A stretch of 64,000 bases of DNA, from positions 7,296,001-7,360,000 of the forward strand of contig CM000151.3 of NCBI GenBank assembly GCA_000004695.1, read 5' to 3'. The translations under genes were made by a program, and so were the position numbers. Shown one piece after another: positions 6,630 through 49,014 of the stretch. The stretch's first letter is position 1, and the number at the start of each line of letters is the position of its first letter. The notes below the pieces were generated by a model that saw nothing but the letters and a program-made list of their open reading frames with translations, was not told the DNA's origin and searched no databases. Source of the DNA: Dictyostelium discoideum (lineage: Eukaryota).

Positions 6630-7499
6630 TTATATTTGTTTTTTTATATTTTCATTTAAATTAATTTTAAAATAATTTAATAATAATTTTTTTAATTGAT
6701 ATTGATCAGTAATTGTAATAGTATTTTCTTTTCCATCTAGGAAACCAATTTTTAAACAATCATGGTGAAAATAGTAATAACCTTTTTCAAATTTTAAAAA
6801 TGAAAATAATTTTTTCTCTGTAATTTCAAGGTAACGTTGGTGACAATCTAAAATTTCACCATGAGTAATTTCACTTGAACTGAATTGAAATAAATTTAAA
6901 TAACTATCCATGCCAGGTTTTTTCTCTTGATAAATGTATGATGAATCATCTGAATTCTCAATACAACGATAGTAGGAGTGATTGCCAGCATTTGATAAAA
7001 CACCAATTTCATTACCCAATTCAATTGGATTTAATGAACCAAAGAAACCAATTCCAACTTCAACCATATACCATTTACTATTTAATGGCCATTGAATTAA
7101 ATTTGAAATGTGGCATGAAAAATGTGGAACTATATTAAATTGTGATTGTTTATATGCTTTAATCAATCTAACTGGAATTCCAAATTCATAAAGAAACATA
7201 CCCATTAAAATATTTAATGTTGTACAAATACCACCCTCACCATCAATTAGTAATCTTTTAACAATATAATCTAATCCCCATTCATCAATACCATGACAAA
7301 GGTCAAAATTATTATATGGTAATTCTTCAACAAACTTTTTTTGTAGAAATGCAATATCATCCAAAGTTTTTAATTGAAAATCTTTTTTTAATTTCAATTT
7401 ATGAATTAATAATTCTTTAATATTATATTTATGACCATTAATTAATTTTTTATATGAGAAAATTTCATTATTATTATTAATTTCATTTAAATAATCCAT
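6630..7499 (-). CDS. arylamine N-acetyltransferase (NAT) family protein
   Basis: Intact 289-aa ORF. ELPYNNFDLCHGID corresponds to the NAT VPFENLNIHCGD motif. RLLIDGEGGICTTLNILMGMFL corresponds to the NAT RNRGGWCLQVNHLLYWAL catalytic-Cys motif. Sits in tandem, same orientation, with the paralog at 5662..6357. Confidence 0.7.
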   Translation of the reverse strand: MDYLNEINNNNEIFSYKKLINGHKYNIKELLIHKLKLKKDFQLKTLDDIAFLQKKFVEELPYNNFDLCHGIDEWGLDYIVKRLLIDGEGGICTTLNILMGMFLYEFGIPVRLIKAYKQSQFNIVPHFSCHISNLIQWPLNSKWYMVEVGIGFFGSLNPIELGNEIGVLSNAGNHSYYRCIENSDDSSYIYQEKKPGMDSYLNLFQFSSSEITHGEILDCHQRYLEITEKKLFSFLKFEKGYYYFHHDCLKIGFLDGKENTITITDQYQLKKLLLNYFKINLNENIKKQI

Positions 7500-8769: not shown

Positions 8770-9814
8770 TTATTTTTTAGCAGCAGCTTTTGCTTCTTCT
8801 TTACCATTAAGATATTTTTCAATTAAAATATTTTCAGATTCTAATTTTGAAGCTAATTTCTTTGCTTGTTCTTCAAAGGAAAGACTTGAGAGTTCAGAAT
8901 CTAAATCGACAGGGGTACCAGTGTATGGAACAGTTTCTGGATGTTCCAAAAAGGATTGCCATTTATGAATATCAGAGAATTGAGCAGCGAGATGTTGACG
9001 AATTAAACCGAGACCCAAACGTTCAGCTTCAGCTCTCTTTTTATCTTCATCGATTTTCTTTTCGAGTCTATCTTTTTCGTCGAGGATTTCAGCGAGTTTT
9101 AATTCGAGGATAGCTTTATCTTTTTCACATTTGGCAAGACGAGATTCGAGATCGAGTTTAGCCAATTTCTCATCATCGAGACCACGAAGGGCATCGTCAA
9201 TCTTTGATTGGAGATCGGTGATACGAGAGTTTCTATTATCATTTTGTTCTCTGATTTTGTTGAGAGCATCTTCGAGATCCTTCTTTTGTTTGACCAATTC
9301 CTCTTGAGAGTGTTTCTCACCTTCGAGAGATTGTTCGAGTGAGGCTAATTTATTGTTTAATGAATTTTGACTGGCTTCAAGTGCTTCTCTTTCCTCTTTG
9401 GCACGGAAAGCATGGAAGAACAATGAAGTGTAAAGTACGATTGAACGTTCATCGACATTACCTTTGGAGAGGGATTCAGCTTCTAAAAGCTTTGGAATAC
9501 CTAATCCTTTCTCTGCGAAATCAAAGGCAGCATTCAAACGAGCAATATTATCATGACCTTCATATTCATCATATTTGAAAACGGTTGGATCATATTTATG
9601 TGCTAATGCCAAGAAACCATGACCATCACGGAAACTAGATTTAAAGCCTGTGATATTAACATTATTATAACCTTCTGTGGTCTTTTTACACCAAGCTAAT
9701 AAACCTTCCTCTGATGATTTATCACCTTCATTAATAACTGAAATACGATATTTACGATATAATGTCCATAAAAAACCCAAAATCATCTTTTTATTATTAT
9801 CAACAAATTCTTTT

Positions 9815-9861
<47 letters not shown>

Positions 9862-10212
9862 TAATAAATTATTCATATTAATAATTTTATAAATTAAATT
9901 GGTTATTATTTTTAATTTAAATTTACCTTCAGCAGCAACACCTTGAACTTTAATTTTTAAATCTTCATCAATGAAAAGCATAGCTAAATGAAGATTTTGT
10001 ACTCTCATAATTCTTGTTTTTGGTTCGAGATCGAATTTCTTTGGGAATTTCTTTCCTGAAACAGATTCTAAAAAGTAAATTAATTTGACACCATCACTGA
10101 GATCAGTTGAAACATCTGAAATTTTATCACAACCACGTTTCTCTAATACTGAATTGACCCATGATGTAAAGGCCATTTCTTGAACTTTTTCCCATTCTTT
10201 ATTTAAATCCAT
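8770..10212 (-). CDS. ctxB: cortexillin (calponin-homology actin-binding domain + long coiled coil); 2 exons 10212..9927, 9809..8770; 441 aa
   Basis: N-terminus [51 protein letters not shown] is a CH domain that continues after a phase-1 GTAAAT..AG intron (A17 run inside the intron) as ..[27 protein letters not shown] heptad coiled coil of about 230 aa and a basic C-terminus [10 protein letters not shown] follow. The 441-aa length fits my recollection of cortexillin II, but the I versus II assignment is from memory only. Confidence 0.75.
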
Positions 10213-10920: not shown

Positions 10921-11056
10921 TTATTTTATTTCAATTTTTTTTTTTTTATTGTCTCTTTGTTCATTATCATCATTTTCTAAATTTATAATTTGATCATTTG
11001 TCCTTTTCTTTACAGTTAAAACACTACCCCATATATCATTTTTAAAATTACCATTA

Positions 11057-11087
<31 letters not shown>

Positions 11088-11376
11088 CATTATTGGTATT
11101 ATTTTTATTATTATTATTATTTGAGTTTGAATTTGGTGGTGATGATGATAGTAAAGATGAGTATGTTAAGGTTGATTGCTTTGAAGGTGACATTGATTTA
11201 TTTTTAATATATTTATTAGATGGTGTAGTTTTTATTATTACTAGATATTTTAACTTTATCATTGAATTGGATGGAACTAAAAATTGATTATATTTTCCCC
11301 AAACTTTTAAATAACCATTTAACCATCCATTTCCTTTAATTATTTTTGTTGATGGTATTGGTTTACCAATTGGAAA

Positions 11377-11443
<67 letters not shown>

Positions 11444-11885
11444 GGCTCAGGTGATAATTCACCAGTCACTTGAAGTATTTGATCCCTATCGATTTGATCA
11501 CTAATTTCTTTACAATAAACAAATTTCTCTTTTTTTTGGTTTTTATTATTATTTTTATTACTATTATCATCATTATCATCTTTTATAACTATACAATCTT
11601 TATCATCAGCTTCATCTTCAGTATCATCATCTTCATTATATTCTAAAACATTTTTAGTGTAATCTTCACTTTTTAATGTATCAATTTTAATTAAATTTGG
11701 TATTGAGATTGTTTTATAGTTTACTTCTACCAACATTAGGATACCAATATTTGGTTGAAATTTAGTTGTTGTTTTATCTCTTTGAAACTTTGACATATTA
11801 ATATTATCTAAACATCCATAAATATTATCCCAACATGATACTTTTATAATATTTATAAATATTATTAGTAAATGAATAATCTTTT

Positions 11886-11925
<40 letters not shown>

Positions 11926-12250
11926 TATTATTATTTTGATAAATACTAGATTTATAACTTGTAAAACTATTATAAGATGGTGAAATACCATTTAAAATTT
12001 TAGCAGCAACACTACTATTATAACAACCATACCAAAGTAATGATTGTTTATTATTTTTATCACTTGAAAAATCTTTTGAATTATCTGATAATCTTGTTGC
12101 TGTGAAACAATCTACACATTGAACTGTATAGTCTTCTTCGTTTGATGATCCATTGGCAATCATTGTTTCAATTGATTTATAACTTTCATTTCTTTTATCT
12201 AATGGCTCAACTGTTATATTTAATCTTTGTAATAAATTTGAATAATTCAT
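10921..12250 (-). CDS. divergent PARP-like ADP-ribosyltransferase-fold protein (N-terminal catalytic-like domain, Asn-rich linker, uncharacterised C-terminal domain); 2 exons 12250..11947, 11840..10921
   Basis: ORFs 11825..12250 and 10921..11991 are in different frames. A phase-1 intron (GTATTT..AG, about 106 nt) contains a 36-nt A run and joins them: ..SFTSYKS-I-SCWDNIYGCLDN.. Motifs: KQSLLWYGCYNSSVAAKILNGIS resembles PARP LLWHGSRTTNFAGILSQGL; NIGILMLVEVNY resembles PARP IGLILLGEVALG, with the Glu retained. His of the H-Y-E triad is replaced by Tyr. Confidence 0.45.
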
Positions 12251-13074: not shown

Positions 13075-14965
13075 ATGAAAATCATGTCGCCAATTTTTAG
13101 TTTTTTCATAACATTGTTCAATATGATAAAGAGAGCATTGGCACCAATCGTTCAACCACAAAGATTGTTTGCCGCTTTAATGGTAATTGGTGGTGGTGGT
13201 AGATCAGCAACAACAACAACAACAACAACAACTAAAGCATGTGGTAATGGATCATCTCAGTCACCTCCATCTACACCATTATTATCATCAAAATCCTCAA
13301 CAATAACATCAAATAAAAAATCAGCAATACCATCATCACATTTATATATTCCAAAGAAATCAACATTAGATTCTAGACAAATTGGAAATTATTCAAGAGA
13401 ATATTCTACCTCCTCCTCTTCATCATCAAAAAAGTCAATCTTTAATGATACATATTTAAATGATTTATTTTGGCAATTATCATCACAAGGTCCTGCATTT
13501 GAAGTTAATCCAAATAATATAGATTTTATTCAAGAACCAATTGATTTTTATAATCATTTAATTGTAAAGTATTATACTACCCTCCCCTCCCCTCACCTCA
13601 CCTCACCTCCCCCCATATCATATAATATTAATATATTTTTTATTTTTTATTTTTTTTTAGGATGGAGTTAAAAGATCAAAAAAAAGAATTACAATGGCAT
13701 CATTATATTTAGGTACAAGTAAACAAGAGATTGAATTAGTTAAAGAGATGAAATTAGCAATGGAAAGAAATAAAGAATTAAAGATACATATATTATTGGA
13801 TGGTTTAAGGGGTACTAGAATTGGATTAGATAAAGAGAGTAGTGCAACTATATTGGGTGAACTATTAAGCCTTTACTCTGATCGTGTCACTATAAGTATG
13901 TATCATACACCAGACCTAAATGGAATCTTAAAGAAAGTATTACCACCAAGAATCAATGAAACCATTGGTGTTCAACATATTAAAACCTATATATTCGATG
14001 ACGATTTACTTTTAAGTGGTGCAAATCTATCTAAAGATTATTTCACAAATAGACAAGATCGTTATGTTTTAATTCGTTCCACAAGCACAGTTTCAAACTA
14101 TTTCAATGAGATCGTTGAAATCATCGGTTCACTCTCTCTACATGTCGATAAAGATAATAGGAATCAGTTACTCCTATCATCTGGTTCAATCGATCCAGTC
14201 ACACAATCAAATGAATTTAAAAATTTAGCATATACAAAATTATCAACACTTTTAAAATCACATTCATATTATCCAAGTAACAGTAATAGTAATTCATCAG
14301 TTGATTCACCATTTGATTGTAATAATATAAATAATGGGGAGACTACTTGGATATTTCCAACAATTCAAATGGGACCATTTAATATACGTCAGGATGAGGT
14401 TGTTACATCACACATTTTCGAATCTGTTCCAAATGATTCTAAATTCTTTATCACTTCACCATACTTTAATTTAACAGAGAATTACTTAAACTTAATTCTA
14501 ACTGGTAAACCAAAATTGGATATTATCACATGTTCACCACAAGCCAATGGATTCTATGGTAGTAAAGGCTTGAGTAGTGCAGTACCCGACTGTTATGCAA
14601 TTATAGAGAAACGTTTCCTTCAACGTGTTCAAGATACTGATAATGGTGATCGTATCTCTGTTCAAGAGTATATTCGTGATAAATGGACCTATCATGCCAA
14701 GGGACTTTGGATTCAAGTAAAGAATCAACAACATCCATCCATTACACTCATTGGTAGTCCAAATTTCGGTTCACGTAGTGTTGAAAAGGATTTAGAAGCT
14801 CAAATCATTTTAATCACTCAAAATAAACAATTACAACAAAAAATGGAAAATGAAAAAAATTATCTTTGGACTGATACTCAAAATGCTAACCTTGAATTAT
14901 TTGAAAAAAGAAAAGTTTCTTTAATGGTTAGATTTTTAGTTTATATTTTTGGTAATTATTTATAA
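13075..14965 (+). CDS. pgs1: CDP-diacylglycerol--glycerol-3-phosphate 3-phosphatidyltransferase (PGP synthase, phospholipase-D-type, mitochondrial); 2 exons 13075..13563, 13661..14965
   Basis: There are two PLD HKD-like motifs: HIKTYIFDDDLLLSGANLSKDYFTNRQDRYVLI and HAKGLWIQVKNQQHPSITLIGSPNFGSRS. The N-terminus MIKRALAPIVQPQRLFAALMV looks like a mitochondrial presequence. One 97-nt phase-0 intron (GTAAAG..AG) carries an unusual C-rich tract. Confidence 0.8.
13581..13615. repeat. C-rich (G-rich on opposite strand) tract inside pgs1 intron
   Basis: ccctcccctcccctcacctcacctcacctcccccc. It is wholly within the 97-nt intron 13564..13660. This is very unusual in an AT-rich intron. The complement has runs of three or more G. 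Confidence 0.8.
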
Positions 14966-15291
14966 ATAATCAAAAAATCAAAAAAAAAAAAAAAAAAAAA
15001 AAATCAAAATTAATAAAAATAAAATAGTAAAAATAAAAAAATAAAAATAAATCAAGATATTTGTAAATAAATAAAATAAAATAAAATAAAATCGGAAATG
15101 GATTTTTTTTATTTTTTTTTTTTTTTTTATTTTTTGAGCAAAAACTGAAAAGTCACCACCTACCAGGGAATTTAATTTTTTGTAAATTGTTTTTTTTTTT
15201 TTTTATTTTTTTTTTTTTTTTATTTTTTTGTTTTGACACACACACAACCACTTTTTGTTTCAAATGATTGATTAAAAAAAAAAAAAAAAAA

Positions 15292-17178
<1,887 letters not shown>

Positions 17179-47112: not shown

Positions 47113-49014
47113 TTAAGAATTTGAATGATTTTTACCTGATAAAACTCTGTCTAAATTAAAAGCAGCACTAATTAAACTTAAATGAGTGAAAGCTTGTGGA
47201 AAATTACCTAAAGCTTCACCACCAATACCAATTTCTTCAGAGAATAAACCCAAATGATTTGCATAACCTAACATTTCATCAAATATTAAACGAGCTTTAA
47301 CTAGATATTCTTTATTGACAACGGAAGCTCTTGTTAAACTTTCGATTAACCAAAATGTACAAATATTGAAAGTACCTTCTTCACCATCCAAACCATCGGT
47401 TGCAATATGATCATCATGACCATGGGTTAGATTATAACGAAATACCAAAGAGTTTGCAACTAGACCTCCTTCTTCCACTGGTTTGAGTATTGCTTCTAAT
47501 GTTGCTAAATTTCTTGGGTCTGATGGAGCCATAAAGAAAACCAACGACATTATCAATGTTGAAGCATCCAATGCTTTACTACCATAGAATTGAGTAATCT
47601 TTGTCCATTTATCACGTGGGGCTGGGAATGATCTACGATCTGCCAAACGCAATCCTCTATCCAATGCCACCCAACACATTATCTTGGAGTAGGTGAAATG
47701 TTGTTTACCACTTCTAACTTCCCAAATACCTTCATCCTTGGTTTGATAATTATCAGCCACCCAATCGACCATCTTCCTAATATGTAACCAAAAATCGTAG
47801 GAAACCAACGACCCATACTTATTGGAGAGATAAATCGAATCCATAAACTCGCCGAAAATGTCCATTTGAACTTGATTGATTGCATCATTACCAACTCTAA
47901 CCGGCTTGCTATCTCTATAGCCTGAAAGATGGTCCAATGTGTATTCGGGGATTTTATCATCGCCATGAATGCTATACATGACACGCACGGGCATGCTTCT
48001 TTTTGGGTCGTCATAAACTGCTTCGGCACATCTTGTTTCCAACCATTTCATAAATGCATGTGCTTCTTCAATGAAGCCAATTCTAATCAAACCATAGACA
48101 GAGAAACTTGAATCTCTCAACCAAGCGTATCTGTAATCCCAATTTCTAGGCCCACCCAATCCCTCTGGTAGCGAACAAGTTGGCGAGGCAATGATTGCAC
48201 CCGTTGGAGCGAATGTCATAAGCTTCAAACATAGTGCACTACGTTCCACGATTTCCCTCCATCTTCCCTTGTAAGTGCATTTCTCCAACCATTTTTGCCA
48301 GTAGAATATGGTGCCCATGAATAATTCATTCTCCAATTTGCCAATATCCTCTGGAACACGATAGAGATGCTTTGGAAACAAGTCTACACTATCAAACGAT
48401 TCCTTTAGTATGAACACCACCACATCATTCTCTTTGACAGTGAAGACCGATTCTAGGAACCCCCCATTTCCATCATTGATAAGTGTCATTGGAATCTTTG
48501 ATATTAAATCTAAATTGATCTTTGTAGGCTCAGATTGAATATTGTAACCAAATTCTGTTTTCTCCATTTTATGTTTATCTAATGCGAAATTGAATGTTGG
48601 TTTGAATATCATTTTCATATCTAATTTGCCTCTGATTCCTTTAACTTTTCTAACTAACCATTTCGAGCCTTTTCCATCTACAACTGGCATATAATCAATC
48701 ACTGATGCTACCGATTCAACTAAATGAAATCTACTCTGAAGTACATTTGTATCTGGCCAATAGCTTTGCTTGGTTTTGGTTTGTTTACACTTCGATCTCA
48801 ATGTTTCTGGTGCAATACGCCAATGTCCACCCTTTTCACAATCTAACAATGAGCAAAACATAGCTGGTGAATCAAAATGCGGCCAACACATAAAATTAAT
48901 ATCAGCATGAATTGATATCAATGCACTTGTTAACATATTTCCAATAACTCCATGATTTTCAATTAATGGATAAGATTCACAAACTCCATCAATTTCAATT
49001 TCATTACTTGCCAT
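47113..49014 (-). CDS. glycoside hydrolase family 15-related protein (glucoamylase / bacterial-type trehalase-like), intronless
   Basis: Single 633-aa ORF. GH15-type motifs: NWDYRYAWLRDSSFSVYGLIRIGFIEEAHAFMKWL and FWLHIRKMVDWVADNYQTKDEGIWE. No signal peptide. By eye the GC content is clearly higher than in neighbouring genes (many GGC/GCC/CGC codons). The short ORFs 47679..48029 and 47929..48111 are alternative frames of this gene. Confidence 0.75.
   Translation of the reverse strand: MASNEIEIDGVCESYPLIENHGVIGNMLTSALISIHADINFMCWPHFDSPAMFCSLLDCEKGGHWRIAPETLRSKCKQTKTKQSYWPDTNVLQSRFHLVESVASVIDYMPVVDGKGSKWLVRKVKGIRGKLDMKMIFKPTFNFALDKHKMEKTEFGYNIQSEPTKINLDLISKIPMTLINDGNGGFLESVFTVKENDVVVFILKESFDSVDLFPKHLYRVPEDIGKLENELFMGTIFYWQKWLEKCTYKGRWREIVERSALCLKLMTFAPTGAIIASPTCSLPEGLGGPRNWDYRYAWLRDSSFSVYGLIRIGFIEEAHAFMKWLETRCAEAVYDDPKRSMPVRVMYSIHGDDKIPEYTLDHLSGYRDSKPVRVGNDAINQVQMDIFGEFMDSIYLSNKYGSLVSYDFWLHIRKMVDWVADNYQTKDEGIWEVRSGKQHFTYSKIMCWVALDRGLRLADRRSFPAPRDKWTKITQFYGSKALDASTLIMSLVFFMAPSDPRNLATLEAILKPVEEGGLVANSLVFRYNLTHGHDDHIATDGLDGEEGTFNICTFWLIESLTRASVVNKEYLVKARLIFDEMLGYANHLGLFSEEIGIGGEALGNFPQAFTHLSLISAAFNLDRVLSGKNHSNS

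Follow-up and report, generated by a model that had tools for sequence, protein, structure and literature searches.

Dictyostelium is well established as a model of DNA repair that depends on PARPs. In the 64,000-nucleotide stretch of D. discoideum DNA analysed here (hereafter the window: contig CM000151.3, positions 7,296,001 to 7,360,000), a locus on the minus strand raises two questions: whether a PARP-like protein is encoded across a run of 36 As and, if it is, whether the residues at its active site are those of an enzyme. The initial annotation, made from the sequence alone, had described a protein with a PARP-fold domain at its N-terminus, a Tyr in place of the His of the H-Y-E triad, and the homopolymer hidden in an intron.

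An intact two-exon gene on chromosome 2

The PARP-like gene extends from 12250 to 10921 on the minus strand, with the ATG at 12250-12248 and the TAA at 10923-10921. If left unspliced, the frame that begins at the ATG encodes poly-Lys across the A-run and reaches a stop at 11825, giving 141 aa. A second minus-strand frame stays open between 11991 and the TAA (10921-10923), and splicing joins the two. Exon 1 (11947-12250, 304 nt) runs from Met1 through base 1 of codon 102 and encodes the first ART beta strands and the LLW-Y74-G-C motif, and exon 2 (10921-11840) comprises 920 nt, stop codon included. Removal of the intron between them (11946 to 11841, minus strand; 106 nt, phase 1, GTATTT...AAAAG, 93% A+T) leaves a single open frame of 407 aa, in which both peptides quoted in the initial annotation, LLWYGCYNSSVAAKILNGI and IGILMLVEVNY, are present.

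Two ORFs of the window, 6630-7499 and 47113-49014, are identical to the AX4 proteins DDB_G0276993 and DDB_G0277045, respectively. The locus is an intact two-exon D. discoideum gene on AX4 chromosome 2, between cortexillin and PLD-like genes, in a window with a G+C content of 22%. On its 5' side lies AT-rich intergenic DNA that is common to a divergent neighbour gene, and the cortexillin gene also adjoins the orthologue in D. firmibasis and in Tieghemostelium lacteum. The upstream neighbour (~13075-17178, plus strand) is annotated in D. firmibasis as one 991-aa product with PLDc and HSP33 Pfam matches, and in a second D. discoideum assembly, GCA_054883475.1, as two genes encoding 594 aa and 628 aa; the disagreement may stem from gene models that were fused in one case or split in the other.

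An exact look-up in the protein collection gave no match for the 407-aa protein, for three alternative-donor models, for a variant carrying the T350N substitution described below, for the unspliced 141-aa and 356-aa ORFs or for two internal-Met forms. Three homology searches of the same collection yielded no D. discoideum product, D. firmibasis being the sole close relative retrieved. As the gene called in GCA_054883475.1 is absent from this collection too, the absence is uninformative on the AX4 annotation.

The homopolymer lies within a conserved intron

Numerous GT..AG pairs leave the frame open across the junction region and, with so many pairs being frame-compatible, an open frame alone is little proof of the junction. 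However, only one pair, the donor at 11946 with the acceptor at 11841, keeps both the invariant T97 and Y99 and the local length of the orthologues. Five orthologues were compared (D. firmibasis, D. purpureum, Polysphondylium violaceum, T. lacteum and Acytostelium subglobosum), and their exon structures were reconstructed from their DNA. The 407-aa model aligns with all five without gaps over the junction, with T97, Y99, S103 and W105 invariant. Donors at 11958, 11967, 11988, 12015 and 12024 were rejected because the orthologue-invariant residues T97 and Y99 would be lost. The intron occupies the identical codon and phase in D. firmibasis, D. purpureum, P. violaceum and T. lacteum (137, 128, 83 and 71 nt, respectively), and an intron is also found at the identical position and phase in A. 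subglobosum. In GCA_054883475.1, a 407-aa gene with the identical junction is called at the syntenic place (L005:5290-6608). Over this gene, that assembly differs from the window at only two points: a run of 25 As for the 36 As, and a C/A substitution at window position 11096 that changes codon 350 (T350N) in the Asn-rich tail. Three independent lines, namely the gap-free alignment, the orthologue introns and the second assembly, bear out the intron as initially modelled, in its length, phase, GTATTT..AG boundaries and coordinates.

The A36 run (T36 on the plus strand) was likewise correctly placed inside this intron: it occupies 11888-11923 on the minus strand. The 11-nt shortfall of GCA_054883475.1 relative to AX4 corresponds to 11913-11923, and a length difference of this size between strains would be tolerable only in an intron, which argues that the tract is intronic. 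No such A-run is present in the introns of the five orthologues; D. firmibasis has A11 and a (TAA)n repeat there. That the tract is instead exonic, with an unspliced, poly-Lys-tailed protein of 141 aa or a different splice form as the main product, is a reading that the open unspliced frame through the A-run to 11825 and the many alternative GT..AG pairs would allow. We nevertheless regard it as extremely unlikely: (i) were the tract exonic, the 11-nt difference between the two D. discoideum assemblies would change the reading frame, (ii) downstream, the frame is conserved and shows purifying selection, (iii) five other species keep the intron position, all of them without the A-run, and (iv) the alternative donors delete T97 and Y99.

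Within the window there are 18 A/T runs of at least 30 nt, 11 of which are of at least 36 nt. The neighbouring cortexillin gene (CH domain and Cortex-I coil; exons ~8770-9786 and 9927-10212) has a minus-strand intron at 9787-9926 (GTAAAT...AAAAAG) that bears T38 (A38 on the plus strand, 9822-9859), indicating that long intronic homopolymers are normal for this genome. As AT-rich filler of an intron, the A36 tract is nothing out of the ordinary; its length varies from strain to strain, and it has no coding consequence. The initial concern that the homopolymer makes the locus prone to frameshift miscalls does not hold for the coding sequence, as the tract is intronic and the A25 copy keeps the protein frame.

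The gene is under purifying selection

The D. firmibasis orthologue is 86% identical to the D. discoideum protein, and dN/dS between the two species (Nei-Gojobori) is 0.14 overall, with a dS of 0.52, and falls to 0.12 when restricted to the non-repetitive core. Across six species, which belong to dictyostelid groups 2 and 4, more than 60 residues do not vary, and every orthologue begins with MNY. The dN/dS values, the invariant residues and the synteny indicate purifying selection and not a pseudogene: the PARP-like locus is a real, conserved gene under purifying selection. A PARP pseudogene in decay, or an artefact of gene prediction whose frame is a by-product of AT-rich low-complexity DNA, would be in keeping with the failure to retrieve a D. 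discoideum protein for the locus from the protein collection, with a sub-threshold Pfam match (see below) and with the low-complexity sequence that makes up much of the protein. However, such an origin is very improbable given a dN/dS of 0.12-0.14 at a dS of 0.5, intact syntenic orthologues with a common intron position in six species, and a second strain in which the gene is called and the coding sequence is identical save T350N.

A further profile search and a search with a low-complexity-trimmed profile added Acytostelium, and Acytostelium only, to the family. Its deposited gene model (SAMD00019534_120300 on DF837609.1; L006:2870-4267) looks wrong at two places: the conserved N-terminus (..AKLLAALNVDIVPLPKSSFHYSTIEKYIS..) can be read from the frame 5' of its ATG, and its second "intron" removes a coding segment, VWDNYNQYLLSNHTL, which includes the third position of the triad.

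A stand-alone PARP1/2/3-type ART domain

Compared with Pfam PF00644, the window protein scored 16.7 bits (E=0.0055) over residues 22-98 and profile positions 2-80 of 199, and so falls short of the gathering score of 26.7 bits. The family members tested all matched PF00644 at E <=10 (5/5), the best at 5.3e-5. As a single sequence, the protein matched PARP1/2 in the PDB at E 0.02-0.08. A Nup88 match in the PDB (E=7e-4) was discarded, being due to poly-Asn. Precomputed Pfam annotation gives no domain in any orthologue, and all those retrieved are named "hypothetical protein".

When a profile of the family was run against the PDB (hmmsearch), the PARP1 ART domain was recovered at E=1.2e-8, PARP2 at ~1e-6 and PARP3 at 0.13, and no other family appeared at E <=1. 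The profile match falls in two stretches, the second of which pairs YNQFLVPSNSMIKLKYLVIIK with a 21-letter PARP1 segment. In an exhaustive hmmsearch against 1.84 billion representative proteins, the dictyostelid family alone scored E <1e-30, and 159 proteins followed from E=3e-9; all ten of these that were checked carry Pfam PARP, eight of them together with PARP_reg and three of those eight with WGR as well. Using hhalign, the family was aligned with a profile of 61 canonical ART domains headed by human PARP1 794-1014, the PARP1 sequence being identical to that of PDB chains: the match reached 99.7% with E=3.2e-25 over 215 columns, residues 7-313 of the D. discoideum protein corresponding to human PARP1 794-1014. 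The AlphaFold model, which is that of the D. firmibasis orthologue and not of the window protein, was computed from an MSA of 7 rows and has a mean pLDDT of 50.8 and a confident core (pLDDT 70-92). The predicted model has the three-dimensional fold of an ART domain, and its best Foldseek matches are PARP1/2 (E=2e-9). Compared with the tankyrase or PARP10-15 clades, PARP1/2/3 are the closest to this ART domain. Taken together, the family-profile match to PDB entries and the hhalign alignment sustain the PARP-fold homology initially proposed, and an ART fold of the PARP1/2 type is established over approximately residues 7-305 (11230-12232 on the minus strand, intron included). The fold thus covers far more than residues 40-160, to which the initial annotation had assigned an N-terminal catalytic domain.

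A Pfam scan of the window protein returned nothing besides PARP, with no WGR, PARP_reg, zinc-finger, WWE, macro or RST domain. Neither a WGR nor a helical regulatory (PARP_reg) domain precedes the ART domain, as the ART alignment starts at residue 7 and the upstream DNA is intergenic. In essence, this dictyostelid-specific protein consists of a PARP1/2/3-type ART domain standing alone. The N-terminal placement of the domain, which had been flagged as unusual, is explained by the lack of WGR and HD domains, and stand-alone domains of this kind have a precedent in D. discoideum (DDB_G0278045, see Discussion).

An acidic insert of ~45 aa contains an invariant Y-N/D-E-D-x-D-T-E/D-D-E motif, which in D. 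discoideum reads Y-N-E-D-D-D-T-E-D-E (residues 169-178, 11611-11640, minus strand), lies in an insertion without a PARP1 counterpart, and has Y169, E171, D172, D174, T175, D177 and E178 as its invariant positions. The other low-complexity insert in the ART fold is a tract of 23 Asn (residues 234-256, 11377-11445, minus strand) that is absent or short in the orthologues. The tail of ~100 aa is of low complexity and carries a conserved DIW..VL.VKKR motif followed by a terminal basic cluster; the D. discoideum motif is DIWGSVLTVKKR (residues 370-381, 11002-11037, minus strand), with the basic cluster next to it. The motif and the basic cluster may act as a nuclear-localisation signal. All six species share four invariant cysteines: Cys45 (codon 12118-12116), Cys76 (12025-12023), Cys111 (11814-11812) and Cys211 (11514-11512). 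Cys76 takes the place of PARP1 Ser864, and the residue matched to Cys45 in the alignment is Val833, on the adjacent antiparallel strand; going by strand register alone, the four cysteines might cluster in the former nicotinamide pocket.

All three positions of the catalytic triad are altered

The first triad position is Tyr74 (codon TAT, 12029-12031, minus strand), which corresponds to PARP1 His862. This Tyr, in the context LLW-Y74-GC, is invariant in the five group-4 species, whereas Acytostelium (group 2) keeps the His and reads LYW-H-GC; the replacement of the triad His reported initially is thus genuine. The second is Ser103 (codon TCA, 11836-11838, minus strand), one codon past the splice junction and invariant in 6/6 species, which corresponds to PARP1 Tyr896: both HMM and HH alignments pair PARP1 K893-G-I-Y896-F-A-D899 with K100-S-I-S103-C-W-D106. 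The same alignments pair PARP1 YNEYIV, which holds the catalytic Glu988, with YNQFLV, placing Gln287 (codon CAA, 11284-11286, minus strand) at the third position; this residue is Gln in 5 species and His in T. lacteum. The Gln of Acytostelium was read from the DNA as VWDNYNQYLLSNHTL, which the deposited model treats as intron. The triad is Y74-S103-Q287 in D. discoideum and H-S-Q in Acytostelium, and ranges over (Y/H)-S-(Q/H) in the family. Neither an H-Y-E nor an H-Y-hydrophobic triad was found in the family alignments. There is also no conserved aromatic residue at the equivalents of PARP1 Y896 or Y907, the alignment at the S904/Y907 equivalents being uncertain since two alignments disagree there. 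The expectation that the other two triad residues would be retained (Y-Y-E) proved wrong, as Ser103 and Gln287 occupy these positions. Tyr109 ("NIYGC") was rejected as the triad Tyr because the orthologues have S, L, I or V at this position, which aligns near PARP1 S902; similarly, Glu140 ("LVEV") was rejected as the catalytic Glu because it aligns with PARP1 E923, which is non-catalytic.

Human PARPs classed as active keep the His and the Tyr, and PARP9 (Q-Y-T) and PARP13 (Y-Y-V), which lack the His, are classed as inactive, the His being needed for NAD+ binding (PMC9189837). Because all three triad residues are lost in the D. discoideum protein, an inactive pseudo-PARP is clearly likelier than a mono-ART; of the two outcomes left open initially, a mono-ADP-ribosyltransferase or an inactive variant, the Y-S-Q triad favours the latter and disfavours the former. 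Judged from the residues alone, catalysis is most likely absent. An excluded PARP1-like fragment of Trichoplax adhaerens (model 52698; PMC2964712, Additional file 2) reads RMLLWYQTRF, and here Tyr may have replaced His independently in an ART domain of the Clade 1 type.

The segments that line the cleft, LLW(Y/H)GC, SSVAAK, T97/Y99, S-x-WDN and YNQ(F/Y)L, are among the best-conserved of the protein, and Gly75 (PARP1 G863) and Thr97/Tyr99 (T887/Y889) are strongly conserved. We asked whether these features could denote an ART that is still active through an unconventional site, e.g., a mono-ART with substrate-assisted catalysis or an enzyme with a non-protein substrate. Such an enzyme would fit the conservation of the cleft-lining segments, the retention of Gly75, the His kept by Acytostelium and the chemical closeness of Gln to Glu. 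However, it appears rather unlikely: His, Tyr and Glu are all replaced in five group-4 species, the active human PARPs keep both H and Y while the two without the His are classed as inactive (PMC9189837), and the Y896 and Y907 equivalents offer no conserved aromatic. The conserved Gly75, Thr97/Tyr99 and cleft residues, together with the Acytostelium His, make some ligand binding, and even an unconventional activity, possible. With this pattern of conservation, the cleft could plausibly bind a ligand or a partner.

Discussion

This locus is an intact, dictyostelid-specific gene encoding a stand-alone PARP1/2/3-type ART domain with a degenerate triad, and the sequence comparisons make its product most likely a non-catalytic pseudo-PARP. 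The remodelled but strongly conserved cleft, the acidic loop and the C-terminal motif would then serve as binding surfaces, and the protein would act as an adaptor or regulator with a binding or scaffold role, possibly in the nucleus. A conserved pseudo-PARP derived from Clade 1 would be a candidate non-catalytic regulator added to the Dictyostelium PARP system. It would also be another independent case in which the ART fold was kept after loss of the catalytic triad, in parallel with the His-to-Tyr change of PARP13. For annotation, the gain is a fold assignment for six "hypothetical proteins" and the flagging of a mis-predicted Acytostelium gene model.

One can further imagine that the nicotinamide pocket was rebuilt as a ligand or metal site formed by Cys45, Cys76, Cys111, Cys211, Trp105 and Ser103, the protein being a dictyostelid reader or regulator of ADP-ribose signalling; we consider this quite improbable. 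Were it true, the protein could modulate the DNA-damage PARPs Adprt1a/1b/2 or HPF1-dependent serine ADP-ribosylation, and its CK2-like acidic loop and basic tail would target it to chromatin.

Published inventories of Dictyostelium PARPs comprise 9-13 genes (PMC1266365, PMC3153639, PMC2964712). The present gene is missing from the Dictyostelium list of Citarelli et al. (PMC2964712): neither this list nor the accompanying alignments have an entry numbered DDB_G0276xxx or DDB_G0277xxx, or a Dictyostelium sequence reading "LLWY". The same study covers D. discoideum DDB_G0278045 (DDB0304590), a Clade 3D member described as a short protein with a PARP catalytic domain and, at the C-terminus, a short extension (PMC2964712). 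This is a different gene, located on chromosome 3 and belonging to a PARP10/14-like clade; its architecture provides a D. discoideum precedent for a near-N-terminal, stand-alone PARP domain.

The ART domains of PARP1/PARP2, the Clade 1 DNA-damage PARPs, are the best matches of the D. discoideum protein in both sequence and structure. The motifs common to them are LLW-x-G, the TGY-like T97/Y99, G-(I/L)-L-(M/L)-L-x-E-V, S/T-P-(D/E)-P, and YN-x-(Y/F)-(I/L)-V ... LKYL. In contrast to PARP1/2, the Dictyostelium protein has no WGR, HD, BRCT or zinc-finger domains and starts six residues before the ART fold; it has Y-S-Q for H-Y-E, a shorter D-loop, ~45-aa acidic and 23-aa poly-Asn insertions, and no C-terminal FNFKTSLW.

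Like the Dictyostelium protein, human PARP13/ZAP and PARP9 have an ART fold in which the NAD+-binding His is replaced, by Tyr in the case of PARP13. However, they are not orthologous to it, the dictyostelid family being nearer to PARP1/2 than to PARP13. Both PARP13 and PARP9 keep the second Tyr, whereas the Dictyostelium protein has Ser there and Gln at the third position, and it stands alone, without the CCCH zinc-finger, WWE or macro domains. TASOR and RCD1/SRO are less similar to the dictyostelid family than PARP1/2 in structure and sequence, and belong to other lineages. The partner domains of RCD1 are RST and WWE, and TASOR is a large multi-domain protein. Neither orthology nor a shared architecture was found with any of the named pseudo-PARPs (PARP13, PARP9, TASOR, RCD1/SRO), and the family was confined to Dictyostelia in an exhaustive search. 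The protein has an ART fold without the NAD+-binding His or an intact triad, and in this it falls in the pseudo-PARP class as described previously (PMC9189837). It is a new, lineage-specific pseudo-PARP of a known class, in which the homopolymer and the N-terminal placement of the domain are ordinary features.
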